Source: a virus
Length of the DNA: 10,772 nt
Reading direction: 5' to 3' (one strand)
Virus genome (UHGV): UHGV-1443384
This document shows positions 1 to 10,772 of the stretch, piece by piece. Each line of letters begins with the position of its first letter. The first letter of the stretch is position 1. Under the pieces are notes generated by a model, which had not been told where the DNA came from, did not search any database, and saw only the letters and a list, made by a program, of their open reading frames with translations. The position numbers were made by a program, and so were the translations under genes.

Positions 1-82
1 CAGTTATCATCTTCGGTTACGGTTATCGGCAGAACGCCCTGCCGCTGACAAGAGCTTATTTGCCTGACCAATCTACTCCACA

Positions 83-103
83 TGATAGATAACTATCATT
101 TAT
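83..103. repeat. Putative attL core (direct repeat tgatagataactatcatttat)
   Basis: Matches 10561-10581 (tgataaataactatcatctat) at 19 of 21 positions. Arm-type repeats lie on the element side of both copies, as expected for attL and attR. Confidence 0.45.
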
Positions 104-170
104 ATCATTTAGTTAATTAGTCTTTATTTTTCATTATGTTGCAAATAACAAGCCTGTCAAAAACAGTGAT

Positions 171-227
171 ATTAACTACACCATTAACTACACCGCTTCA
201 CGAACAATATCGAACAACCGCGAACAA
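171..227. promoter_or_regulatory. Integrase arm-type binding repeats, left arm (2x ATTAACTACACC, 3x CGAACAA phased at 10 bp)
   Basis: ATTAACTACACC at 171-182 and 183-194; CGAACAA at 201, 211 and 221. The same motif pair recurs at 10417-10484 next to int. Confidence 0.45.
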
Positions 228-267
228 AGATCAACACGCTTTAATCATTATCATTTTCCGGCTATCC

Positions 268-456
268 GTCATGAAGCTAGTGGATGATCTGCGTGGTGAT
301 TTCCACCATTCAGAGCAGGGGCGGTCATCATGCCCATGCCATAACAAAAACCCCATATTCGTGGTTTTTCTGTGTTGTGGCTATTCTGCCGTTGCCGTGC
401 TGGTGGATATTTCCGTTATGGGGATCACCATATCGGCATCATGCCCACCAGCGTGA
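268..456 (+). CDS. Hypothetical small protein (62 aa) with Cys-rich polar N-terminus and a single hydrophobic helix; doubtful
   Basis: ATG at 268 in frame with track ORF 136..456. Hydrophobic stretch IFVVFLCCGYSAVAVLVDISVMGITI. No clear Shine-Dalgarno. Confidence 0.15.
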   Translation, partial: VMKLVDDLRGDFHHSEQGRSSCPCHNKNPIFVVFLCCGYSAVAVLVDISVMGITISASCPPA

Positions 457-1076
457 AGCGTTTTTCATTTTTCGCGGGTATAAAAAATCGATGGGGCTGG
501 CAGTCCAGAAGACGTCAGGGTACAGAGATTTGCCCCGCCCCTCCCTGTGCATAAGCACAATAAGTAACCGAAGGCGGAATTCCGCCCTCGGTACTCACAT
601 ATGAGAAACGATATTTCTTCCACCGATACCCTTTATTTGGGTATCGCGAGTAAGCCCCAAAATCTGGGTGTTACTCTTACTACCCAAACTACGGGTAGTT
701 TCCGTAGTTTCATGGTCGAGTTGCAGATCTGCAACTCACCCACCAGCCAACGCAATTTTGCGTTATCGGGAATATCAGCAAGTTAGCACAGAAATAACTC
801 AGGCAGATACAAAACTCAATTTTGAGGTTTGCTTATTATTCAGTTGGTTAACATCCCTCAAAACTGAGGACTGTACCCAAAGCTATTTTTATAGCTCCGG
901 CCTCAGCCGTTGGCTGTTCCCGAAAATATCAGTCAGTTACGTTAACCGCTAATTTCTGCCTTTGGTGTGAATACTGTCGCTTTAACCTACGGTAATTGTT
1001 CTGCCTCGGTGCGTGTCACCGCCGTAACCGCGCCAGTAAACCCCACAGATTCGTGGTTTTCCTGAATATCAGGAAT

Positions 1077-1358
1077 CTACCGCCGCAACCGTTCCGGCTT
1101 CTTCCACTGGTAAGTATTTTTCGCGCTCTCCCTCCGTTGTTGAGAACGGCGACGGTATGCCAGCAACTCAAGGACTCTTGTTCGTATGTTGCGCATATCC
1201 ACGCCGTTAAGCTCAATACCATCACGGCGCATCACCTCAGCAACAACACGCACATAATTTTCAGCGGTCACGCTGTCCGGCTGTGTGGCCTGTTCGTCAT
1301 GCTGCTGGCTGATTCCGACGACGCGGCGGATTAATCCCAGTAGTTCGGCTTCAGTCAT
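1077..1358 (-). CDS. Hypothetical protein (93 aa), Arg-rich C-terminus, immediately downstream of TerS
   Basis: Track ORF; RBS GAGGG 5 nt before the ATG. Sits where lambda has the large terminase gene A but is far too small and unrelated to it. Confidence 0.55.
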   Translation of the reverse strand: MTEAELLGLIRRVVGISQQHDEQATQPDSVTAENYVRVVAEVMRRDGIELNGVDMRNIRTRVLELLAYRRRSQQRRESAKNTYQWKKPERLRR

Positions 1359-1431
1359 TGTGCCCTCATCGTTCTGATAGCCTGGTGTCGTCGGGTCCTT
1401 CCTGGAATTATGGCCCGTTACGGGGCGGCGG

Positions 1432-1974
1432 TTACTCGCCTTTGTTCTCTAGCAACTTCTCAGGCGCGTTTCCGGTAGTTTCCATCAGGTAATCAGCCAG
1501 TATCTGTGGCAGGTTTTCGTCAAGTCTTGCACATGCGTTACATGCTTTGGCTATTTCCCTTTTTAGTTCATCCAGCATATACGGCCTTATATCGGGAAAG
1601 CGCCTTTGCATTGTGAGCGGGAGGCTGTCCATGATTGATGAAATCTGACTCGCTAGTTTTGAAATCGCGTAGATGCAAAACTTTGTATCAATCACCTCGC
1701 CGCGTTCGCGCTCGTTTTTAAGTTCCTGCGCTTCCGCCTGGGCCGTCATTAATCTGATTCTTACGCGTAAAAGTTCATCATCATCAATCTCGCCTTTGTC
1801 GTTTGTAAGCTGGTTAATTGCATTGTTAACCCTATTGTCTATCACGCTAGCAACATCATAAAACGCCTCACGGCCTTTACGCTCAACGGGAGTTACTCCC
1901 CACTTGTCGAACGCTGTCGCACTTACGCGGCAGCTTTGCGCCATAGTTTTTTTGTTCATCAGGTGCGATTTCAT
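1432..1974 (-). CDS. Terminase small subunit, lambda Nu1-like (satellite TerS / packaging-redirection candidate)
   Basis: C-terminal two thirds align with lambda Nu1 (ours RLMTAQAEAQELKNERERGEVIDTKFCIYAISKLASQISSIMDSLPLTMQRRFP vs lambda RLTRAQADAQELKNARDSAEVVETAFCTFVLSRIAGEIASILDGLPLSVQRRFP). The N-terminal DNA-binding part is diverged. Start chosen at the ATG preceded by GGGGA; the track ORF extends to 1986. Confidence 0.85.
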   Translation of the reverse strand: MKSHLMNKKTMAQSCRVSATAFDKWGVTPVERKGREAFYDVASVIDNRVNNAINQLTNDKGEIDDDELLRVRIRLMTAQAEAQELKNERERGEVIDTKFCIYAISKLASQISSIMDSLPLTMQRRFPDIRPYMLDELKREIAKACNACARLDENLPQILADYLMETTGNAPEKLLENKGE

Positions 1975-2001
1975 CAATATCCCCACTTAGTTAAGGTTTC
2001 A

Positions 2002-2150
2002 GGTTGGTGTGTTGGTGTTATCTTTCCCTTTTTATTCATAGAGATAGAGCGAAAAACAAAACCACCACCACCAACCCGAAAAGGCTCATAAATAGCGAAA
2101 ATCCGCAAGGTCGCCGCCCCGTAGCCTGCCGGATCGCCGGAAAGGACCCG
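2002..2150 (-). other. Lambda-type cos site (cosQ-cosN-I1 conserved, cosB-like repeats diverged)
   Basis: Minus strand reads cgttctggctggcgggtcctttccggcgatccggcaggctacg GGGCGGCGACCT tgcggattttcgctatttatgag, near-identical to the lambda right end, the 12-nt cohesive end (plus 2108-2119) and the start of the left end. Inverted ACCACC/GGTGGT-rich repeats at 2002-2019 and 2060-2077 replace the lambda R sites. Confidence 0.85.
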
Positions 2151-2175
2151 CCAGCCAGAACGGGCCCTAATTTCA

Positions 2176-2520
2176 TCAACCAATCAACTTATTGCGTCCT
2201 TTCAGGGCATTACGCCTGGCGCGTTCAATCTTGAGGCATAACGCCGCATCAGGTTTTTCGGGGGTGGGAACAAGGCAATAATTTGATGCGCGCGGAATGT
2301 TGTTAATCCACGCAACAACCTCGCTTAAATACCATGCCTTGCGCCCTTTCGTAACCTGTACGCGTTCGGGGAACTCTCCGCGAGCCTCAAGGTTTAGCAA
2401 TGTGCGACGGCTAAGGGTTGTAAGCTCCACTACCTGATCCATATCAACAAGGCGCTCGCTTAAACTCATTTTGTCATCGATATCTAATAGCTCTCGTAGC
2501 TGACTATCTCTTTCAATCAT
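2176..2520 (-). CDS. AlpA-family HTH DNA-binding protein (114 aa), second copy in the element
   Basis: Motif VVELTTLSRRTLLNLEARGEFPERVQVTKGRKAWYLSEVVAWI fits the phage AlpA / excisionase-type HTH pattern. RBS GAGGT; start overlaps the stop of the upstream gene. Confidence 0.65.
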   Translation of the reverse strand: MIERDSQLRELLDIDDKMSLSERLVDMDQVVELTTLSRRTLLNLEARGEFPERVQVTKGRKAWYLSEVVAWINNIPRASNYCLVPTPEKPDAALCLKIERARRNALKGRNKLIG

Positions 2521-2529
2521 TCTCGTACC

Positions 2530-2871
2530 TCACACACGTGCCAGCGGCTGAACAGAAATACCTGAGCCAACAAACGCAGCAACTTTTGCTGATAGTTGTG
2601 TTACAGACTCAGGCCAGTTCAGAGCATCAACATTTAAGACGCCGGTTTTATAAACCTGAGCCTGCGTTTTTGTCGCTGTATCGATTTGTACAGCGGAAAC
2701 ATAAACAGCTTTGCCTGCGCTCGTTCCATCCCATACCACCAGTGCACCAGTTGCATCTTCTTGCATCAGTGGCGTAAATGCAGGAATTACCCCTTTATTA
2801 GCTGAAAATATCCCCAACGTAGTAACCAGTGCTTCAGTGCCAGCCATGAGTTCAGTGTAATGAGTAGCCAT
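2530..2871 (-). CDS. Head decoration protein, lambda gpD-like (113 aa)
   Basis: Aligns with lambda gpD (TPLM...LVVWDGT...YKTG...WPE...AAFVGSGISV vs TPLM...LVAWDGT...YKSG...WPE...TAFAGTAISIV). Strong RBS GGGGGAG; 9 bp after the capsid gene. Confidence 0.8.
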   Translation of the reverse strand: MATHYTELMAGTEALVTTLGIFSANKGVIPAFTPLMQEDATGALVVWDGTSAGKAVYVSAVQIDTATKTQAQVYKTGVLNVDALNWPESVTQLSAKVAAFVGSGISVQPLARV

Positions 2872-2880
2872 TGCTCCCCC

Positions 2881-3921
2881 TTAACCAATGCGAACGGTAA
2901 CAAAACGATTGATGCGGGCCGGTATTGGTTGCGGTGCGCTGTGCGTCTGTACATATTCAATAGCCGGATCACCTGGTACGATGTAATTTTTCGGCGCAAG
3001 TTCGGCTTTAGTCAGCCCCATTCTGATTAACTCAGGATCCTGAATGCCACCGTAGGCAACGATGCCCTGTAATGATGTGTTGCCAAGCACCATCAAATCA
3101 GGATCAAGGAAATATTTTTCTTTGCCGTCCTCGTCGGTATAACGTCCGCTATATACCACAATAGCAACATCGCCAACGTAACCCTTGAAGCTTACAGAAT
3201 CCCCAAGATTTTTCAGGGCCGTTTCAAGAACGGAATTAGATCCCCGTCGAGTATCAAGGCAATCTTTTACTGCTTTAAAGGCGCGGTATTTTTTCCATAC
3301 GTTGCGGCCCATTACGATGATATTTGTAGTACCTTCGCTGATTTCTGCGTACTCTTCGATGTCATCGTTTGGATCAAATGTTGATAAATCTCTACCGCTC
3401 CACTCCGTGCCGCCGGACTGCGTGATAATATTTTGTGGTTTTATATTCCAGTCCAGTTCATAACGTTCAATTCCATCACCTTCAATGATATTTTTCCCCG
3501 TTGTAACCGCCTGAACAGCAAGCCACTCAATACGCGCACGAATTGCCTGCGCTTGTCTTACTAACGCTCGCTTTATTTTGAAACTGCGTGATGAATATGC
3601 ATTGAATTGTTCAGGTGATACGCCTGGTTGACGAACGGCTATTTTATTTGGGTCGATACTACTTTTTGGCTTCATATAGCCAGGGCGAATTACTTTTGAT
3701 TCGTAGCCTTCATCGCGTGAGACTTTACTACCAACCATAGGGGAACAAAATGCAGCCATCGGGATGTCTGGATCGTCAATAATATCAAGCGCAATATCCC
3801 GCGTCTCAAATGTAACGACTCGCTTAAAAAACAGGTTTATAAATAAAGAATTAATCTGCCATTGAATATCTTCGGCATTAACAACCTGTATTAACATGGC
3901 TGGCGAATATAAATCACTCAT
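2881..3921 (-). CDS. Major capsid protein, lambda gpE-like (346 aa)
   Basis: Collinear similarity to lambda gpE over the full length (NIITQSGGTEWSGRDLSTFDPNDDIEEYA vs NNITQSGGTEWSKRDKSTYDPTDDIEAYA; FKAVKDCLDTRRGSNSVLETALKNLGDSVSFKGYVGDVAIVVYSG vs FKAVKEKLDTRRGSNSELETAVKDLGKAVSYKGMYGDVAIVVYSG). RBS AAGAGG. Confidence 0.9.
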   Translation of the reverse strand: MSDLYSPAMLIQVVNAEDIQWQINSLFINLFFKRVVTFETRDIALDIIDDPDIPMAAFCSPMVGSKVSRDEGYESKVIRPGYMKPKSSIDPNKIAVRQPGVSPEQFNAYSSRSFKIKRALVRQAQAIRARIEWLAVQAVTTGKNIIEGDGIERYELDWNIKPQNIITQSGGTEWSGRDLSTFDPNDDIEEYAEISEGTTNIIVMGRNVWKKYRAFKAVKDCLDTRRGSNSVLETALKNLGDSVSFKGYVGDVAIVVYSGRYTDEDGKEKYFLDPDLMVLGNTSLQGIVAYGGIQDPELIRMGLTKAELAPKNYIVPGDPAIEYVQTHSAPQPIPARINRFVTVRIG

Positions 3922-3973
3922 ATAACCTCTTAATACTTAGTAAAAGTGTCGCGTTAATTTTATCATCTGCCTT

Positions 3974-4002
3974 GTTTGGCATCTTTATGCATTGCTATGC
4001 AA
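3974..4002 (-). promoter_or_regulatory. Candidate promoter of the capsid-cos-TerS operon with a 13-bp palindrome in the spacer
   Basis: Minus strand TTGCAC-17-CATAAA (weak -10, suggesting activator dependence). Palindrome ATTGCtatGCAAT at 3981-3993 lies in the spacer. Confidence 0.3.
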
Positions 4003-4106
4003 TAGTGTGCAAAGTTTCAATCTTCGTTTATTTATCCGGCGTTACGTGTCATTCTGTACAGCGTTACAAGTTCAAAGACATAAATTATTCTCTTTGGTGA
4101 TGAAAG

Positions 4107-4132
4107 GGTCGGAATATTCCGGCCTTTTTTTT
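4107..4132 (+). terminator. Rho-independent terminator, plus strand (stem GGTCGG/CCGGCC followed by T8)
   Basis: Hairpin 4107-4124 followed by tttttttt at 4125-4132. Implies a short plus-strand transcript originating in 3950-4100. Confidence 0.55.
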
Positions 4133-4149
4133 GCGTAGTGTGACGGACT

Positions 4150-4177
4150 CAACTGATAAAAGCCGGATTGCTCCGGC
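4150..4177 (-). terminator. Rho-independent terminator for the ssb transcript (minus strand)
   Basis: Minus strand hairpin GCCGGAgcaaTCCGGC followed by TTTTATCAGTT, 17 nt after the ssb stop. Confidence 0.5.
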
Positions 4178-4193
4178 CTCTGTTACTCGTTGC

Positions 4194-4616
4194 TTAAAAC
4201 GGTATGTTATCCCCGTACGGATCATCATTTCCCGCCTGTTGTTTTGCCCTGTTCAGCGCGTCAGTAGCCTGGCCCTGTTGACCTTTTTTGCCGCCCGGTT
4301 GCGCCGTTCGCGCACTGATTACGCTGTCTGCAATAACCTGCCAGCCCTGCCGCGTTTCCCCGTTCTGGCCTGTCCACTGGCTCACCTGCATGTTACCCGC
4401 CACGCTCACCAGTTCGCCTTTGTGGTGTTTTGCCAGTGCGTCGGCCTGTCTGCCAAACGCCAGGACAGATAACCACATCGTCGCCGTTCCGTCATCTGCC
4501 TGGCTGCACGGCAGGGGAACCGCCATACTCGCCATCGCCATTTGTGTCCCTTTGCTGGTGGTCTTTAACTGCGGGTCAGCCACCAGCCGCCCGTAAGCCG
4601 CTATCTGTGCTGTCAT
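4194..4616 (-). CDS. ssb: Single-stranded DNA-binding protein (SSB-like OB fold, 140 aa)
   Basis: N-terminal YGRLVADPQLKTTSKG and WLSVLAFGRQAD fit the SSB OB fold. Gly/Gln-rich linker and acidic tip DDPYGDNIPF resemble the SSB C-terminal DDDIPF tail. Confidence 0.75.
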   Translation of the reverse strand: MTAQIAAYGRLVADPQLKTTSKGTQMAMASMAVPLPCSQADDGTATMWLSVLAFGRQADALAKHHKGELVSVAGNMQVSQWTGQNGETRQGWQVIADSVISARTAQPGGKKGQQGQATDALNRAKQQAGNDDPYGDNIPF

Positions 4617-4858
4617 GCTGTCTGCTCTCCGGTTTTAACGTTGATGGTTGTCACCTGTTCCGCTTCGGCAATCTCCCGTTCTGTCAGCGTGGCAAAGTTT
4701 GCTGCCGCCGTGGTCATGAATGCGCTTATCAGTTCGGGATGTGCTTTTGCGTACCCTTCTCCCGCGTTGCGGTCGATGATTTTTATCGCCACCCTCAGCC
4801 AGTGTTCTGTCAAATCAAGGGCGTGAGATTGTGGTTTTTTTGCGTGCTTCGTTGTCAC
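4613..4858 (-). CDS. Hypothetical protein (81 aa), translationally coupled to ssb
   Basis: GTG start with RBS TGAGGT. Its TGA stop overlaps the ssb ATG (ATGA overlap). Confidence 0.55.
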   Translation of the reverse strand: MTTKHAKKPQSHALDLTEHWLRVAIKIIDRNAGEGYAKAHPELISAFMTTAAANFATLTEREIAEAEQVTTINVKTGEQTA

Positions 4859-4904
4859 AGGCTTTACCTCACAGCAATAAAATAAAATTTTTGCATTTTA
4901 ACCC

Positions 4905-5131
4905 TTCACCTGTTCACCTTTTGAGATTTTCCCTTTTTATTCATAATGTTAAGGGGTGAACAGTTTCACAAAAACTATTCACCAACTGTTCACCACTGTT
5001 CACCCTTAAAGCTCAATAAATAATCAAAAAGGTGAACAGTGAATAGTTTGGTGAACAGTTCACAAATAACTGTTCACCATATAATATACTGATATAAAAG
5101 ATATTTATAACAGGGTGAACAGTGGTGAACA
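4905..5131. repeat. Replication origin with P4 alpha-type iterons (about 10 copies of TGTTCACC / GGTGAACA, both orientations) and AT-rich unwinding stretch
   Basis: Octamers at 4911, 4955, 4987, 4998, 5031, 5050, 5071, 5114 and 5124, plus partial copies. AT-rich block at 5080-5110. Immediately downstream of the primase gene. Confidence 0.8.
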
Positions 5132-5145
5132 GTTATTCCATAAGT

Positions 5146-6963
5146 TTAATTTTTGCTGTCGTCATTTGTGACCGATGCACATGATGGCATCCAGTCTTCT
5201 GAATCCTCTGTCAGTGTCACATTTGAACGCAAACCGTGCTTCGTTTTCCGTTTTATATACTCCCTGCCATATTCCGCCATTGCCCCCGGCATATCTTTAC
5301 CGAAGCGCGTCAGTGTTACAGGTTTACCGAATCCGTGTGCCCTCATATATGCCAGATAGGCGTGATAAAGATACCTGCGCGGACTGAACGGAATAATTTC
5401 GGCATTACCCACTAACAGACCATCACACATTACCGACGACATGAGATAGCCACAGAAGTCCACCAGCGAATCGCCCTCGCGTTTTATCACCAGAGCTTCT
5501 TCTGATTTCTGCTGCTCATACAGCAGGCGTTTAGCTTCGTCCTGGTCAGAAAAACGAGTAAGCAGATGGCGAATCACAACCGCCAGCTCTCCTTCTATTT
5601 TTTCTGCCAGCATGGGGTCGCGCTCGTTCTCCGGTACAACCTCCGAAAAATTGAATATCACCCGACGACGTGAGATCCCCCCGCTGCGGTCACTGAATGA
5701 CATGGCGTTATTGTTCACCGCCAGCACGACCGCCTGAATGCGTGTTGAGTAGGGGGCTTTATGCTTCGGGTCGATTGCCACCTTGTCACCGCCTGTAATA
5801 GCCTTAATTCCTGCGCCATCACCAGCGTAGCGGGTCATATCCGGCATGATAATCAGCGAAAAGCCAACCACTAACGCGCGTTCCCTTGCATCTTCCAGCG
5901 CCTTCATGCTTGCCGATACTGTGTTGGCCTTACCCGCCAGCATGGTGCAAATCTCCGCCATCACGCTTTTACCACTTCCCCCTGGACCTGTTACCTCAAT
6001 GAATAACTGCCAGTCGTACCGGTTCGCCAGCACCATGAATAATGCAGCCAGCACGCGATCCGTCTTGCGGTCATTCTCTGCCACCGAGCAGCGTAACCAC
6101 TTCCAGAAATTCGGCGCATGTGTTGCCAGCGTTTCCCCCTCTGCTGGTGGGCTGAAAGGTAATTCACTGGCAATTAACAACCAGTCGTTTTTGTTATGCT
6201 CCCGAAAATTACCTGTTCTGGTATCAAATACCCCGTTACTGAATCCAATCAGGTTACGGGCTGTATTCCCCATTACAGGCAAACTTAACTTCATGGTATC
6301 GACCGCCGATTTAATGGCGTTCTGCGAATAGCTGATCTCCGCATCAATGAAAATCTGTGCCATAGCTCGCTGTAATTCTTTATCCTGTACTGGCTCCCAT
6401 ACAACGCCGTTGTAATGGTGAACAGTGTCAGAGTCAGCATGAATCGCCAGTTCACCGCCATAATGTGCCAGGAGAACTTCGCCGCGTTGACTTGCTCCCA
6501 TCTGGTTAAGCGCCAGTGATGAAGCGTTATCGTCTTTTACCCGCTCTTTTTTCTTTACAGGCAGTTCAACTACCTTTTTCTTTTCCGTCAGCTCTCCCCG
6601 CTCACGTTCCAGATATTCGCGCCAGTTCTCCCGTTTCTGGCTGTGCATTCCTTCAGGGTAATAATCAGCATCCCTGACACCTGCCGCTGCCAGTTTCTGC
6701 CCGATGGTATTAACAAGCCCCGGACGCAATAACCCCGCCTGATAGAGACGCACGCGATAGCGTCCGTCCGGTACGATTTGCAGGTTGTCCAGTTCGGCAA
6801 GTTGTTGCTCTCCAAGCCAGACAGGTGGCACGTTATCGCCAGCCAGTCGCCCGTCCTGTTCCTGCCACTGTTTCGCATGTGCCCACGCATCACTACCCGC
6901 AAAAATGATGACTTCCGTCATTTTGTCACGCGGCTGGTGTTTTAAATTTGGCGCTTTTTTCAT
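5146..6963 (-). CDS. DNA primase/helicase, P4 alpha-like (PICI pri-rep type)
   Basis: Walker A motif VTGPGGSGKSV in the central region; large size; adjacent TGTTCACC iterons. Start set at the ATG (6963) preceded by GGAGAG and overlapping the upstream stop; the track ORF begins at GTG 6978. Confidence 0.85.
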   Translation of the reverse strand: MKKAPNLKHQPRDKMTEVIIFAGSDAWAHAKQWQEQDGRLAGDNVPPVWLGEQQLAELDNLQIVPDGRYRVRLYQAGLLRPGLVNTIGQKLAAAGVRDADYYPEGMHSQKRENWREYLERERGELTEKKKVVELPVKKKERVKDDNASSLALNQMGASQRGEVLLAHYGGELAIHADSDTVHHYNGVVWEPVQDKELQRAMAQIFIDAEISYSQNAIKSAVDTMKLSLPVMGNTARNLIGFSNGVFDTRTGNFREHNKNDWLLIASELPFSPPAEGETLATHAPNFWKWLRCSVAENDRKTDRVLAALFMVLANRYDWQLFIEVTGPGGSGKSVMAEICTMLAGKANTVSASMKALEDARERALVVGFSLIIMPDMTRYAGDGAGIKAITGGDKVAIDPKHKAPYSTRIQAVVLAVNNNAMSFSDRSGGISRRRVIFNFSEVVPENERDPMLAEKIEGELAVVIRHLLTRFSDQDEAKRLLYEQQKSEEALVIKREGDSLVDFCGYLMSSVMCDGLLVGNAEIIPFSPRRYLYHAYLAYMRAHGFGKPVTLTRFGKDMPGAMAEYGREYIKRKTKHGLRSNVTLTEDSEDWMPSCASVTNDDSKN

Positions 6964-7259
6964 TTCTGCTCTCTCCACGCGGCAATCATGTTTTTCAGTT
7001 CCTGTAGTTTTTTATCAACATCCATACATGACACATGGTTATTTCTGGAAGGCGGGATTTCCCGCCGGAATCTGCTAATAAAGATCTCCACGTTCAGCGA
7101 ACTATGAAATGAATAGCCATCACGAATAAAATACACACGGTCAAACATCAGTTCTTTTACCGTTACTCTGTTACCGTTCTTATCCAGATAAATAGCGCCG
7201 GGGATAATTTTGGGGTGTGCATAACCGCTGGCAGTCAAGCCAGATAAATATGTTCTCAT
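6960..7259 (-). CDS. Hypothetical protein (99 aa), coupled to the primase
   Basis: Track ORF; TGA stop overlaps the primase ATG. Occupies the position of the small genes upstream of alpha in P4-like elements. Confidence 0.55.
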   Translation of the reverse strand: MRTYLSGLTASGYAHPKIIPGAIYLDKNGNRVTVKELMFDRVYFIRDGYSFHSSLNVEIFISRFRREIPPSRNNHVSCMDVDKKLQELKNMIAAWREQK

Positions 7260-7265
7260 GATTAT

Positions 7266-7586
7266 TTATCCCCGATTTGAATCAGTATTCGCTTTCTTTA
7301 TGGCATTTAATGCATCTGTGGTATTTTCAATGGTGCACCGTAACGAAATATCAAACTGCCCAAGCATTGCCAGTAACAAACCGATATTACCCATATCAAT
7401 GCGCATGGCCTTTTCGTCATAGTCCTCATTTTCTGACGCATGCCACATCAGGCTACCAATTGACGCAATACCCATTGATATATTGTCAGTAGCCCCATCC
7501 GCAGCGGAATAAACCTTTTTAGCAATATCATGCTCACAGTTAAAATGCGGATTAATCAGGTACTGGTAATTTGACATATCAGGCAT
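7266..7586 (-). CDS. Hypothetical protein (106 aa)
   Basis: Track ORF; strong RBS AGGGGG before the ATG at 7586; acidic protein. Confidence 0.55.
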   Translation of the reverse strand: MPDMSNYQYLINPHFNCEHDIAKKVYSAADGATDNISMGIASIGSLMWHASENEDYDEKAMRIDMGNIGLLLAMLGQFDISLRCTIENTTDALNAIKKANTDSNRG

Positions 7587-7782
7587 GGCACACCCCCTGA
7601 CGAATACGGGCAGCGAATACCATCACGCAGCCAGCCGGAGATTGCTGGCGTGCTTCCTGTTCGCTGGTGGCCTCAATGGTAATCACGCGCGGTTGTGCCG
7701 TGCTCAGGGCGATAAAACGCCAGATGTATTTATTCAGGTTGTGCGAGTCCCGCCCTTGCGGGTGTGTGGTATGATTTCTCAT
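7579..7782 (-). CDS. Small protein (67 aa), possibly Icd-like (host cell-division inhibitor family); first gene of the primase operon
   Basis: Internal ATG at 7782 with RBS GAGGTA within the spurious 359-aa track ORF; stop overlaps the next start. C-terminus ...SPAGCVMVFAARIRQGVCHA recalls Icd-like proteins from memory only. Confidence 0.4.
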   Translation of the reverse strand: MRNHTTHPQGRDSHNLNKYIWRFIALSTAQPRVITIEATSEQEARQQSPAGCVMVFAARIRQGVCHA

Positions 7783-7880
7783 AGCTACCTCGATACTTTC
7801 GCTATCGTTGGTGGTTAGACGCCCTGCATGTGTTGCGAGCACTGCGGGGCGTTGCTTAATTTGAGTGACAAAACTCAAAC

Positions 7881-7959
7881 TGTGCGCACAGATTAAAATC
7901 ATGTGTGCGCACATGTCAATACTTAACATCTCATTTTTTTTGCTGTATTGTGTGCGCCC
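7881..7959. promoter_or_regulatory. Divergent promoter/operator switch: TGTGCGCACA palindromes at 23-bp phasing overlapping back-to-back promoters
   Basis: Perfect TGTGCGCACA at 7881-7890 and 7904-7913 (inside the 16-bp palindrome catgtgtgcgcacatg), half-site at 7950-7959. Minus strand TTGACA-17-TTTAAT has one operator in its spacer and one at the start site. Candidate plus promoter TTAACA-17-TATTGT. Confidence 0.5.
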
Positions 7960-7987
7960 ATAAAGTCCATTTAAGTGAGGTGCATCA

Positions 7988-8185
7988 ATGTCTAGCGGTA
8001 ACACAAACAACAAATCAGCAAAGAAAAATATTCGATTCCCACATGAGCTTATAGATGGGATTGATGCCAGCGTTGAACAAGAAAAATTAACTAATCCTAG
8101 TGCTAATTTTTCCGCATGGGTCTTAGATGCCTGTGGACGCAAATTAAAATATGAACAGCGCCGGAAGGCCAAAGAATCAGAATAA
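7988..8185 (+). CDS. YlcI/YnfO-family (DUF3950-like) small protein, possible ribbon-helix-helix regulator (65 aa)
   Basis: Strong RBS GTGAGGTG. Motif NIRFPHELIDGIDASVEQ...NFSAWVLDACGRKL resembles E. coli prophage YlcI/YnfO proteins (NIRFP...NFSAWV..AC.RRL), recalled from memory. Confidence 0.55.
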   Translation: MSSGNTNNKSAKKNIRFPHELIDGIDASVEQEKLTNPSANFSAWVLDACGRKLKYEQRRKAKESE

Positions 8186-8242
8186 TCACTATCAGCGCCG
8201 TGGTGTGAGTAACTACGGCGCATTGCTATGCAGGGCAACACA

Positions 8243-8416
8243 ATGACCGATAAAGAATTGACCAAAACATTATCACCGACACGGAAAAGACGGCGCAGAA
8301 AGATAGAGCATGAATCAGAAAGATTCGCACCTTGTTCGTTTGCTCTTGAGAAATTCCTTAAAGAGCGCAGGAAAAAACTCTCGTTGCAAACCTTGGAACG
8401 AACCGAATCTGACTGA
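8243..8416 (+). CDS. Hypothetical highly basic small protein (57 aa, RKRRRRK tract)
   Basis: Downstream of the YlcI-like gene in the same orientation; operon ends at the terminator at 8481-8508. Weak RBS; the start could be the ATG at 8228. Confidence 0.35.
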   Translation: MTDKELTKTLSPTRKRRRRKIEHESERFAPCSFALEKFLKERRKKLSLQTLERTESD

Positions 8417-8480
8417 TCAAATTGCCCACCAGCCAGCAAATCGCTATGATGTTCGGGCTTATGTTTAGTGTTTTCCCATT

Positions 8481-8508
8481 GGCGACCGCCCCCGGTCGCC
8501 TTTGTTTT
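8481..8508 (+). terminator. Rho-independent terminator, plus strand (GGCGACC gccccc GGTCGCC followed by TTTGTTTT)
   Basis: 7-bp GC stem with T-rich tail, between the plus-strand two-gene operon and the convergent alpA. Confidence 0.6.
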
Positions 8509-8527
8509 ATGTGTCATATGCTCCCCT

Positions 8528-8737
8528 TTACGCTGCCTTTCCTGAATTAATGCGATCCCGGCTTTTAACCCATTCCATAACCTCAGACTTAACCCAGCCA
8601 ACCGAACGACCTCCAAGACTGATACGGGAGGGAAAGCGGCCTTGTTTTTCCATCTCATAACGAGTTGTACGGCAAACGCCTGTTAGCTCTCTGCATTCTT
8701 TTTCACGGATTACACGATCTTCATTTATTTCGCGCAT
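8528..8737 (-). CDS. alpA: AlpA-family transcriptional regulator / excision-associated HTH protein (69 aa)
   Basis: Motif RVIREKECRELTGVCRTTRYEMEKQGRFPSRISLGGRSVGWVKSEVMEWV fits the AlpA pattern. Start taken at the internal ATG (8737); the track ORF extends to GTG 8821. Lies downstream of int as in PICI and P4-like elements. Confidence 0.75.
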   Translation of the reverse strand: MREINEDRVIREKECRELTGVCRTTRYEMEKQGRFPSRISLGGRSVGWVKSEVMEWVKSRDRINSGKAA

Positions 8738-9154
8738 AAAAAGCCCTACATAAAATTTACGTATAGAAATTTTTGTTTCGCTGTGGATATACGGGAAGGA
8801 ATACTTCTTAGCTTTTTTCACCTCTTAAATTGAATACGTAACCTTTCTGAACTTTATGTTCGTCAAAGTTCGCTAGAGTTTGCTGCTGTTCATAAAATCG
8901 TGTCACGAGTTTTTAAGCGACGCAACAAAAAATGTCGTCATTTGGTATGATACTTGAATTATCTTATTAAAAACAAATAGATAAACCATCAGGTGTTGGA
9001 ATAATCAAGAAACAGAAAATAAGAACTCAGAAGAAGATATTTCAATTTTTTCGATGGTTGACACATATAAAGTGAAGATATTTGCAGATATTTTCCGATA
9101 TTCTACGATTTATTCACGGCTGTAATCTCTTAAAGAAAAAACAGCCGTAATTTG

Positions 9155-10393
9155 TCAAGAATTTTGGGTGTAAATTCGCGGGGTCATAACAACGATTTTT
9201 TCATCATTGTTCTGGAGAAGCTCGAGACGGTCTACCCATAGATTAAGAGCATCACGTTTTGCATCAAGATAGCGGGAGTGGTTATAGACTCGTTGCATCC
9301 CTGGCATCTGGTGGGCTGTAAGCTGCTCGACAATATGCGGATCCACGCCTAAATCGTTCAGCATGGTTGTAAATGTGTGCCGGATATCGTGTAACGTCCA
9401 GGGGGCTTGATTAATTCGTCTGTGCGCTGTTCTTCCGTACTCTGCTACCGAAGATTGTCCTTTCAGTTCACCAAGCAATAAGCCCGTGTGTCTGTTCTGC
9501 TCCACCAGCTGCGTGATGAACGGCAAAATGCTTTCCGGTATTGGCCTGAATATGGCGACCTTCGTTTTGCTGTGCTCCTTCGGTACCGTCCAGAGCATTT
9601 CTTTAAAATCCCACTCCTGCACCTCAGAGCGCCTTAGCTCGGTGGTACGGCATCCGAAAACAATCAGGAGGCGAATTAGGGCGCTGTAGTACGGCGGGAA
9701 TATTTTGTCATCCAGGGCGCGGAGTAATTCCCCAAGCTCCTTGTTTGTTAGTACGCGCTCGCTCACTTCTGCTTTTTTTCCCACATCACCGACAACCATA
9801 TCATCAAGAACGTTGCTGATTGCGTATCGTCGTTTTCGGCAGTACTTAAGCGCCTGTTTACATACCTGTAGCAAAAATCCGGCAGATACTGGGCTTCGCT
9901 TTGCCATCTGGTCAAAACATGCCAACCAGTGCCGTAGCTCGCATTTTTCCAACGGCATAGCGCCAATCTGGCTGATTATGTGTTTATTGATCCGGCTTTT
10001 CAGTGATTCGTAGTCAGTGCGCTTTTCCTTTGCATACGATTCAAGCCAGTAAGTGAGCGCTTCCTTAACTGTCACGGGGGCTAACGCATCCTGTACAGCA
10101 CGATTAAGCTCATAGCGCGGATTTTTCCCCTCAGCCAGCCAAGCGCGACACTGTGCCGCTTTTTCCCTGGCTGCTTTCAGGCTCAGATCGGGATAATTGC
10201 CCAGTCTCAGACGTTCCGGTGATACCTGCCTACCAGTTCCAGCCCTGTAAGTGAAATACCAGGTTAACAGGCCGCTGGTGGAATGTCTTACGCTAAGATT
10301 GCCACCGTCATTAAAAAAGGCGTTTTTTGTGGTTGGTGATCCGCTTAATTTTCGTAAAAGAGTGTCGCTAAGTCTATGAATTGCGCTGCTCAT
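9155..10393 (-). CDS. int: Tyrosine site-specific integrase, P4-type (412 aa)
   Basis: C-terminal catalytic motifs WTLHDIRHTFTT (H-x-x-R) and RVYNHSRYL (catalytic Tyr); size and N-terminal arm-binding-type region typical of the P4 integrase family; adjacent to the attR arm repeats. Confidence 0.9.
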   Translation of the reverse strand: MSSAIHRLSDTLLRKLSGSPTTKNAFFNDGGNLSVRHSTSGLLTWYFTYRAGTGRQVSPERLRLGNYPDLSLKAAREKAAQCRAWLAEGKNPRYELNRAVQDALAPVTVKEALTYWLESYAKEKRTDYESLKSRINKHIISQIGAMPLEKCELRHWLACFDQMAKRSPVSAGFLLQVCKQALKYCRKRRYAISNVLDDMVVGDVGKKAEVSERVLTNKELGELLRALDDKIFPPYYSALIRLLIVFGCRTTELRRSEVQEWDFKEMLWTVPKEHSKTKVAIFRPIPESILPFITQLVEQNRHTGLLLGELKGQSSVAEYGRTAHRRINQAPWTLHDIRHTFTTMLNDLGVDPHIVEQLTAHQMPGMQRVYNHSRYLDAKRDALNLWVDRLELLQNNDEKIVVMTPRIYTQNS

Positions 10394-10416
10394 GTTTCGC
10401 GTTTCCGGTCATCAAA

Positions 10417-10484
10417 ATTAACTACACCATTGACTACACCGTGCATCGTACAAGGGCAAACAGTGACGAACAAGGGCGAACAAG
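10417..10484. promoter_or_regulatory. Integrase arm-type binding repeats, right arm (ATTAACTACACC, ATTGACTACACC, CGAACAAG repeats) overlapping the int promoter region
   Basis: Same motif pair as 171-227; CGAACAAG at 10467 and 10477, with degenerate copies at 10446 and 10540-10557. Confidence 0.45.
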
Positions 10485-10560
10485 AAAAACAAAATTTTCC
10501 TTTATAATCATATCGATGAATAAACACAACACACTACCACGAACACCAGCGAACACTAGC

Positions 10561-10581
10561 TGATAAATAACTATCATCTAT
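10561..10581. repeat. Putative attR core (direct repeat tgataaataactatcatctat)
   Basis: 19 of 21 identity with 83-103; lies on the outer side of the right arm repeats. Confidence 0.45.
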
Positions 10582-10772
10582 CGTTGGCATCAGCGACATC
10601 TGTCACATTCCTGTCAATAGCGTTAACTGCTTCAAATTTTTGATTCATACCTGCCCCTTGTCCCCTGTCAAATGCTTGACGGCTCGCCCTAATTCTCTAA
10701 ATTGTATTTCTAGAGTTGGCGAGGTTTTGAACAGCCCCCTCTCTGACCCCGGTTTATTCCATCTTACTTGTA

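Follow-up and report, generated by a model that had tools for sequence, protein, structure and literature searches.

A candidate ribbon-helix-helix repressor cassette encoded antisense to an Eta-like open frame in an Escherichia coli phage satellite

Two small plus-strand genes in an element whose large genes all lie on the minus strand raise the question of what such a pair is for. The element is located in a 10,772-nt stretch of virus genome UHGV-1443384 (hereafter the window, by which the whole stretch analysed is meant) and is, judged by its sequence, an E. coli phage satellite of the type of the phage-inducible chromosomal islands (PICIs) and P4, about 10.25 kb in size. The original prediction had described the pair as a YlcI/YnfO-like protein resembling ribbon-helix-helix (RHH) proteins and a highly basic 57-amino-acid (aa) protein, followed by their own terminator, and had offered two functions, a repressor with a partner or an antitoxin-like pair. 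Family match, conservation, promoter, and terminator agree that both open reading frames (ORFs) are real, and they occupy the same place as the immunity functions of P4-type satellites, in keeping with the regulatory position that had been supposed for them. The plus-strand bicistronic operon, composed of promoter, RHH gene (ORF1), ORF2, and terminator, is read here as an immunity/maintenance module, and this whole model is held with moderate confidence. The parts of the operon are the following:

7923-7951, plus strand: predicted sigma-70 promoter of the plus-strand operon from a consensus scan (-35 TTAACA at 7923-7928, 17-nt spacer, -10 TATTGT at 7946-7951)
7988-8185, plus strand: RHH gene, 65 aa, proposed immunity repressor (NF041551, PF13132)
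8195-8221, plus strand: GC-rich hairpin between the RHH gene and ORF2, without T-run (-23.2 kcal/mol and z-score -3.1 for 8186-8242)
8243-8416, plus strand: ORF2, basic 57-aa protein, recognized by conservation, frame-preserving indels, the lowest pN/pS, and a match to phrog_21027
8481-8508, plus strand: intrinsic terminator of the plus-strand operon, ending 9 nt short of the minus-strand ATG 8517

Upstream of the RHH gene lie a second promoter, in the opposite direction, three operator-like sites, and the left part of a segment that is exchanged between satellites:

7919 to 7892, minus strand: predicted promoter, equivalent of P4 PLE, read from the sequence (-35 TTGACA at 7919-7914, 16-nt spacer, -10 TTTAAT at 7897-7892)
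7881-7890, no strand assigned: O1, operator-like palindrome TGTGCGCACA, over the predicted start site of the minus-strand promoter
7904-7913, no strand assigned: O2, operator-like palindrome TGTGCGCACA, within the 16-nt spacer of the minus-strand promoter
7951-7960, no strand assigned: O3, operator-like repeat TGTGCGCCCA with one mismatch, overlapping -10/+1 of the plus-strand promoter, putative autoregulation site
7857-8155, no strand assigned: putative swappable immunity cassette comprising the operators, the two promoters, and all but the last 10 codons of the RHH gene

The minus-strand promoter is situated inside a long open frame and would drive a short Icd-like ORF and the replication operon. 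With at most one mismatch allowed, TGTGCGCACA is matched three times in the 10.8-kb window, all within 80 nt, and a Serratia marcescens satellite with the same RHH allele (YlcI 79% identical) has the same TGTGCGCACA triplet. For the comparison, 87 loci were collected. Of the L-numbers by which sequences are designated, L096 is P4 and L097 is the element of WP9-S17-ESBL-11. At least 12 RHH alleles occupy the slot, namely the 65-aa YlcI type, several 59-aa types, 101-106-aa types, and Arc-like types. For every allele there is a separate motif in three copies, at about -105, -80, and -35 relative to the RHH ATG; examples are GTGTTGAACAC, GTGTCAGCCAC, GTGTAAGACAC, TGAATCGCAC, GAAACACAC, and GGTAATTACC. 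These allele-specific motifs flank the conserved TTGAC and the conserved -10 of the two back-to-back promoters; TTGAC(A/G) directly after O2 is kept across RHH alleles, and an equivalent GTATACT or GTATTGT -10 directly precedes the third repeat in the other alleles.

A natural exchange of the segment was found in L097, which is 99.4% identical to the window over 1-7856 and 99.2% over 8156-10772. Between these flanks, 7857-8155 is replaced in L097 by 399 non-homologous bp (8158-8556) with a 101-aa RHH allele and different repeats. ORF2 and the last 10 codons of the RHH gene are just outside the exchanged part, in the conserved right flank. The anatomy of the region, the covariation of repeats with alleles, and the open frame described below are direct observations. 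Covariation and swap taken together have the look of the classic signature of an exchangeable repressor/operator immunity cassette. Because the repeats are matched to the allele and the swap is confined to 7857-8155, the RHH protein is most likely a swappable immunity repressor that would bind the TGTGCGCACA repeats.

ORF1 itself is a clear member of the YlcI/YnfO (DUF3950) family, as had been supposed, with matches to NCBIfam NF041551 YlcI_YnfO_N (E 3.5e-16, 59 bits against a cutoff of 30) and Pfam DUF3950 (PF13132; E 1.6e-6, 28.3 bits against 25). It is preceded by a strong Shine-Dalgarno (SD) sequence, GAGGTG, 7 nt upstream of its ATG. Homologues of ORF1 were collected from across Enterobacterales (n = 115), and nearly all of them have PF13132. 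The RHH pattern is recognized in an extended N-terminus and a K-N-I-R-F-P strand, followed by predicted helices at residues 19-35 and 41-64. In hhalign, KNIRFPHE is aligned to the beta-strand of Arc (Arc residues 8-24) in the right register, with a probability of only 5%. A PDB sequence search with the YlcI profile gave no match, and neither did Foldseek of the YlcI monomer model against PDB (0 matches), where a monomer cannot show the intersubunit sheet. Literature searched for YlcI, YnfO, and DUF3950 contained nothing relevant to function. Supported by the allele-specific operator triplets and the natural cassette swap, ORF1 is best read as a repressor, so that this half of the proposal of a repressor with a partner is retained; the partner half is weakened by ORF2 being independent of the allele.

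On the minus strand, the pair is covered by one long frame, and the features concerned are these:

8517 to 7579, minus strand: Eta-like long ORF, 312 aa, with start taAAGGGGAGcatATG just after the alpA stop, ending as an Icd-like domain
7579-7782, minus strand: Icd-like (Kil-like) ORF of 67 aa preceded by a separate SD (GAGG), sharing the frame of the long ORF at its 3' end
7819-7852, minus strand: conserved hairpin in the leader of the predicted short Icd-like transcript, at the left cassette edge (-17.5 kcal/mol, z-score -2.9)

The first ATG of this frame is at 8658, and ATG 8517 is the better start, preceded by AAGGGGAG (strong SD, AGGGGAG) and situated 10 nt after the alpA stop TAA at 8530-8528. 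The resulting 312-aa ORF wholly overlaps ORF2, the RHH gene, and the operator/promoter region in antisense. The earlier description of the pair as set between alpA and the replication operon therefore has to be changed, as no gap exists there. The 67-aa ORF at its end matches NF033153 phage_ICD_like with E 1.4e-19, and this 67-aa form is annotated by the Prokaryotic Genome Annotation Pipeline (PGAP).

Over 7783-8527 the long frame has no stop codon, against 22 and 15 in the other two minus-strand frames. The probability of the 205-nt operator region being open by chance in this frame is about 0.015. The long frame crosses the 200 nt before the RHH ATG without a stop in 13 of 15 allele classes, while the other two frames have 2-11 stops each, about 5 on average. 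The frame runs into the Icd-like domain in about 60 of the 87 loci and ends just before the Icd-like start in about 20 more. In Klebsiella it is a 555-aa ORF with no stops against 35 and 41 in the other frames, and its ATG overlaps the stop of an upstream AntA gene; the Serratia frame is 152 codons long. Bro-N or Phage_ASH domains are found in the long ORF of some E. coli loci. An explanation of the long ORF as an artefact of chance or composition was rejected in view of the 15-41 stops in the other two minus-strand frames. Third codon positions coincide between the strands in every allele class where the long frame continues into the Icd-like ORF. The stretch of the long ORF opposite the RHH gene is of antisense-type composition (R1 0.38, Y2 0.65) and gave no match in the family search, so the selection appears to act on the open frame and not on its sequence. 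This stretch differs completely between alleles, yet it stays open. The long minus-strand frame thus appears, from these comparisons, to be kept free of stops by selection.

The same frame bears on another explanation, in which the plus-strand genes are generic prophage morons, the repeats bind AlpA or a helper protein, and the minus-strand frame encodes a functional multi-domain protein of the Bro network. Lambdoid prophages have YlcI/YnfO homologues outside their immunity regions, which would be in line with it. So would the real Bro-N, AntA-adjacent, or Phage_ASH domains of the long ORF in some loci. Furthermore, the account of the Bro/immunity zone in PMC10111431 treats it as Bro-network genes with RNA repressors only, and mentions no plus-strand gene there. 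The repeats, however, vary together with the RHH allele, whereas alpA and the remainder of the element do not follow them; outside the cassette, the window and L097 are isogenic. The antisense-type, family-less, and allele-variable character of the frame opposite the RHH gene is also contrary to a functional multi-domain protein. We regard the moron explanation as improbable, and the RHH protein remains the preferred candidate for the factor that recognizes the repeats.

ORF2 can be read as 62 aa from ATG 8228 or 57 aa from ATG 8243. The variants have only the latter start in common, which decides for 57 aa, in agreement with the original prediction. The product would have a pI of 10.2 and 17 Lys or Arg among 57 residues, with the tract RKRRRRK at residues 14-20. 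Its conserved core, ERFAPCxFALExFLKE, shows synonymous codon variation and conservative replacements. The only family matched was phrog_21027 of unknown function (E 1e-13); Pfam, NCBIfam, PADLOC, and PDB (the last with the ORF2 profile) gave no match, so the basic protein has indeed no recognisable family. No match was obtained with tblastn against phage records. A scan of one genome per species found a single locus, in Shigella flexneri, and an exhaustive hidden Markov model search of 1.84 billion proteins returned nine representatives, of which eight are true and the named sources are Escherichia and Shigella. The ninth, P0214 (1141 aa), was rejected as a spurious repeat protein. The family is very narrow, yet common within E. 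coli: the block 8156-8466, comprising the 3' end of the RHH gene and ORF2, is present in 1580 of 5426 complete E. coli genomes (29%). In the structure model, a disordered basic N-terminus is followed by one long helix, at a low-confidence pLDDT of 69. A lambda-N-like arginine-rich RNA-binding motif, with the adjacent hairpin as its target, was considered and dropped as unsupported because the divergent homologue P0217 has its basic tract at the C-terminus instead of the N-terminus, and the position of the tract is thus not conserved.

A type II toxin-antitoxin or abortive-infection module, with the RHH protein as antitoxin and the small basic protein as toxin, serving stabilisation or defence, would resemble the locus in having the RHH gene first, a small second gene, and a shared promoter. 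The RHH protein also has weak HicB-like matches (Pfam E 0.22; phrog_497 E 0.039). Such a module is very improbable because the RHH gene occurs without ORF2 in Serratia and Klebsiella satellites, ORF2 is independent of the allele, no toxin or defence family is matched in PADLOC, Pfam, or NCBIfam, and the putative operators are placed over the promoter of the replication operon and not only over that of the pair. The same ORF2 follows 12 or more RHH alleles, some of them Arc-like and ending in a C-terminal tail of unrelated sequence, which is incompatible with cognate neutralisation; the predicted disordered basic region with a single helix likewise counts against such a module. The antitoxin-like pair of the original prediction is accordingly not supported, and the allele-specific repressor with an allele-independent second gene is the reading followed below.

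Whether ORF2 is translated at all was a separate matter. All 29 distinct ORF2 DNA variants (29/29) have an intact frame with the same ATG, and their indels are of 3 or 6 nt, so lack of conservation, which had been named as a finding that would speak against the second gene, was not observed. It is nevertheless conceivable that the RHH gene is the sole plus-strand gene, and that ORF2 is untranslated and conserved through the openness of the minus-strand frame and through a cis-antisense RNA directed against the 5' end of the Eta-like mRNA, in analogy to the CI RNA of P4. The DNA of 8186-8330 is nearly invariant, third codon positions included, which opposite-strand or RNA constraint could explain; the SD is weak (CAGGG, 9-10 nt upstream), and a small hairpin takes up part of it. 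Conservation extends to the spacer hairpin, only 9 nt separate the end of the plus-strand terminator from the minus-strand ATG, and the coinciding third codon positions make an open antisense frame comparatively cheap. In addition, PGAP and other gene callers usually skip ORF2.

Contrary to the untranslated alternative, pN/pS (the ratio of non-synonymous to synonymous polymorphism) has its minimum in the frame of ORF2: the value there is 0.31, which is only moderately low, compared with 0.54 for the open antisense frame and more than that for the remaining frames. Codon position 2 is least variable in the plus-strand frame of ORF2, and purine at codon position 1 favours the same frame (0.56 vs 0.46). 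An ACAGG element about 10 nt upstream of ORF2 and the ATG survive in otherwise divergent spacers, and the divergent homologues P0216 and P0217 retain the core. In simulations of neutral substitution, the probability that the plus-strand frame is open given an open minus-strand frame was 0.24-0.72 per lineage; over six lineages, the joint probability that the ORF2 frame stays open by chance is about 0.004 if lineages are independent, which is an optimistic bound because they are not. The plus-frame alignment of the block is protein-like, while the minus-frame alignment is rich in Ser, Leu, Arg, and Cys and has non-conservative changes and ragged ends. On these comparative grounds ORF2 is quite probably translated, and the untranslated alternative is rather unlikely.

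Predicted proteins from both strands of the ORF2 block are present in a large protein collection. The 57-aa plus-strand protein is called by PGAP in SMS-3-5 and WP9-S17-ESBL-11. Elsewhere (8156-8520; RefSeq records of L001-L005), PGAP gives a minus-strand pseudogene designated 'Icd-like', 'BRO-N domain', or 'ash family', with a terminus missing, and ORF2 is omitted. Similarity to the N-terminal regions of long Eta-like ORFs in other elements is the probable source of those pseudogenes. The minus strand as the sole coding strand of the block, as these pseudogenes imply, was rejected on the lower pN/pS and the more conservative replacements of the plus-strand frame.

The operon has its own terminator, as had been proposed. 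The stem GGCGACCG/CGGTCGCC at 8481-8500 is followed by TTTGTTTT, with -17.5 kcal/mol and a z-score of -5.2. A hairpin with a T-run 65-100 nt after ORF2 recurs in 52 of 54 distinct variants and has at least four unrelated stem sequences, strong comparative evidence that plus-strand transcription really ends there. The hairpin at 8195-8221 is found in almost all spacer variants, mostly maintained through G-U changes. The hairpin at 7819-7852 has about 30 sequence variants (L001-L095) and is always beside GGTTAGA, with compensatory changes in 4 of 12 pairs. On the plus strand it is followed by a T-rich tract and might terminate transcription there; a 5' stabiliser or processing site for the minus-strand RNA is just as conceivable.

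The following course of events is proposed. RHH dimers would bind the three allele-specific repeats. Occupancy of O1 and O2 would shut the minus-strand promoter, keeping the short Icd-like gene and the replication operon off, and occupancy of O3 on the -10/+1 of the RHH gene's own promoter would result in autoregulation. By analogy with P4 eta/kil and P1 c4-icd-ant, the long ORF would have to be translated for alpA-initiated, helper-triggered transcripts to reach the replication genes without premature termination, and such a need would explain why the frame is free of stops across the operators and the antisense genes. The plus-strand transcript would be complementary to the first ~330 nt of the long ORF, to within 9 nt of its start codon, and might in addition counteract leaky read-through, either by pairing as antisense RNA or by collision of transcription. 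ORF2 would be a translated small basic accessory protein whose target is common to all these satellites and not specific to the allele.

Besides the features of ORF2 already mentioned (weak and partly paired SD, nearly invariant DNA, only moderately low pN/pS, and rare calling), several points weigh against this reading. The -10 TTTAAT of the minus-strand promoter is imperfect, and the promoter was absent from the scan output; the scan missed it because the tool demands A at position 2 of the -10. About a quarter of the loci have a long frame that is broken or stops shortly before the start of the Icd-like ORF. The model infers DNA binding, the activity of the promoters, translation on either strand, and dependence on Rho. 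The analogy to P4 is architectural and incomplete, as the window is without the CI and seqA RNAs. In K-12, YlcI and YnfO of prophages DLP12 and Qin adjoin the small-terminase gene, outside the immunity region, so the YlcI/YnfO family is not uniformly a family of immunity repressors. ORF1 belongs to the same family as these two, and the satellite branch differs from them in being situated at a regulatory node with cognate repeats.

The remaining genes of the element are all on the minus strand:

9155-10393, minus strand: integrase (Phage_integrase, Pfam)
8528-8821, minus strand: alpA (Phage_AlpA, PF05930, E 1.6e-17), with stop TAA at 8530-8528
7266-7586, minus strand: 106-aa ORF, phrog_15327 (function unknown), without a match in Pfam
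6960-7259, minus strand: DUF4222 protein
5146-6978, minus strand: D5/P4-type primase (D5_N/Pox_D5)
4194-4616, minus strand: single-stranded DNA-binding protein
1432-3921, minus strand: lambda-type capsid E (Phage_cap_E), decoration D (HDPD), a second AlpA-like gene, and Nu1-like small terminase (Phage_Nu1)

With integrase, alpA, primase, small size, att repeats, and captured helper late genes, the element has what characterizes Gram-negative PICI/P4-like satellites. Direct repeats of 25 nt, ATTAACTACACCATT[A/G]ACTACACCG, at 171-195 and 10417-10441 are spaced by 10,246 bp and are its ends (attL/attR). No tRNA gene was found in the window. Near-identical copies are integrated between clpS and cspD in several E. 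coli strains. The 106-aa ORF occupies the position of P4 epsilon, or 'Derepression' (PF25738), a gene seen in the Serratia relative L088. The second gene of the AlpA family, with a helix-turn-helix (HTH), is at 2176-2520 on the minus strand, in the packaging module between the head-decoration and small-terminase genes.

AT-rich long palindromes and repeats were noted at 4960-5141, directly downstream of the primase stop (5146), with spurious microRNA (miRNA) matches in Rfam; their position agrees with the replication origin described for Gram-negative PICIs. Another long palindrome, at 1996-2082 between the Nu1-like and the second AlpA-like gene, has a spurious mir-3910 match on both strands and could terminate transcription in both directions or have to do with packaging. 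The 18-nt sequence TTTCCCTTTTTATTCATA is present in two exact copies (2023-2040 and 4928-4945), one beside each large palindrome, and in a third, 83% identical copy at 10495-10512, immediately beyond the right att repeat. A role as binding site or promoter element is conceivable.

In satellites of Escherichia, Serratia, and Klebsiella, a divergent RHH gene whose allele-matched putative operators cover the promoter equivalent to PLE is a concrete repressor candidate, and the elements of the window and WP9-S17-ESBL-11 form a natural isogenic pair for immunity specificity. The region is systematically mis-annotated, being usually called a minus-strand pseudogene in the 29% of complete E. coli genomes that carry the block. 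The long antisense overlap, with its frame open across promoters and operators, would be a clean case for selection on translation itself. As far as can be judged from these comparisons, what is new is the combination of a P4-type nested-gene immunity architecture with an RHH repressor/operator switch, and what is unusual is the apparently selected long antisense overlap. A wider generalization is put forward only tentatively and is itself doubtful: YlcI-like RHH proteins could be master repressors of many Gram-negative PICIs and P4-like satellites, with exchangeable specificity, encoded antisense in a leader ORF that is translated only against termination, and ORF2 could be a new small basic regulator, for example of helper sensing or termination. 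In that case a stretch of roughly 940 bp would combine three layers: two proteins from the plus strand, a translated minus-strand frame with a Kil/Icd-like end, and the operators and promoters of both directions.

Among known systems, the Stl/Rpr repressors of Gram-positive PICIs are the first to be compared. In staphylococcal pathogenicity islands, a repressor gene divergent from the replication module sets the quiescence of the satellite, while Gram-negative PICIs were described as unidirectionally transcribed and without a known global repressor (PMC6092414). A divergently transcribed repressor gene is what is proposed here as well. Stl proteins, in contrast, are larger HTH repressors encoded between int and xis, and the RHH protein is unrelated to Stl.

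The immI region of P22 has the RHH repressors Mnt and Arc, the divergent promoters Pmnt and Pant, and the sar antisense RNA. Small RHH repressors on short palindromic operators over back-to-back divergent promoters, autoregulation, and an antisense RNA layer in the same region are the common features, on the side of the satellite as predictions. Beyond the RHH pattern no homology is detectable (the hhalign probability given above), and immI of P22 differs in controlling an antirepressor, not a replication operon, and in having genes that are not embedded antisense in another ORF. In immI of P1 and P7 (c4, icd, ant), translation of icd is reportedly needed for downstream transcription. An Icd-family frame is shared with that system, where repression blocks its translation, and in Klebsiella relatives an AntA-family gene is directly upstream of the long ORF. 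In P1, icd is the first and a short frame, and the regulator is the C4 RNA, whereas in the satellite a long frame has the Icd-like domain at its C-terminal end, and the proposed regulator is a protein from the opposite strand.

The closest architecture is that of P4. Its ORF at 8168-8812 on the minus strand (214 aa) starts within the end of orf88/vis of the AlpA family and is Eta with nested Kil; residues 161-208 of Eta match phage_ICD_like with E 1.4e-20. Both regions have the gene order of an alpA-family gene, a long ORF at its end, a gene at the epsilon position, and primase. In both, the long ORF begins at or over the end of the alpA-family gene (the Eta ATG at 8812 overlaps orf88), and has a C-terminal phage_ICD_like domain with an in-frame short form. 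For the promoter inside the long ORF of P4, the predicted TTGACA-16-TTTAAT is the candidate counterpart in the window. The long ORF of the window is not significantly similar to Eta in BLASTP (E 0.85), and only the Icd-like domain is demonstrably homologous. As outlined in the part of PMC10111431 that deals with P4, citing Forti 1999, a constitutive promoter is internal to eta, interactions of CI and seqA RNAs terminate the transcript, Kil is a truncated form, and read-through is made possible by translation of the long ORF. A plus-strand gene is absent from this place in P4, whose immunity factor is an RNA from the same strand, while the window has an antisense-encoded RHH protein, three putative operators over the internal promoter, and ORF2 in addition.

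Rfam models C4 (CI) and isrK (seqA), searched in the window with E up to 1, were not found, and only the spurious miRNA matches on the two palindromes appeared; neither RNA was found in L001, L005, L006, or the Serratia and Klebsiella loci. Both were found in P4 (8420-8692), L004 (1889-2074), L092 (2271-2456), and L094 (1862-2525). The last three carry the RHH-ORF2 cassette, and their RNAs are on the minus strand, between the putatively RHH-controlled promoter and the Icd-like domain. Because isrK and C4 lie downstream of it there, the RHH/operator module is at the position of PLE. Some satellites appear to have both a protein and an RNA layer of immunity, and the window the protein layer only. 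The window is not a full member of the P4 type because it shares the architecture and not the RNA repressor. We propose, from this comparison, that it is a P4-type immunity region without the RNA repressor, in which a protein repressor encoded on the opposite strand would occupy the promoter.

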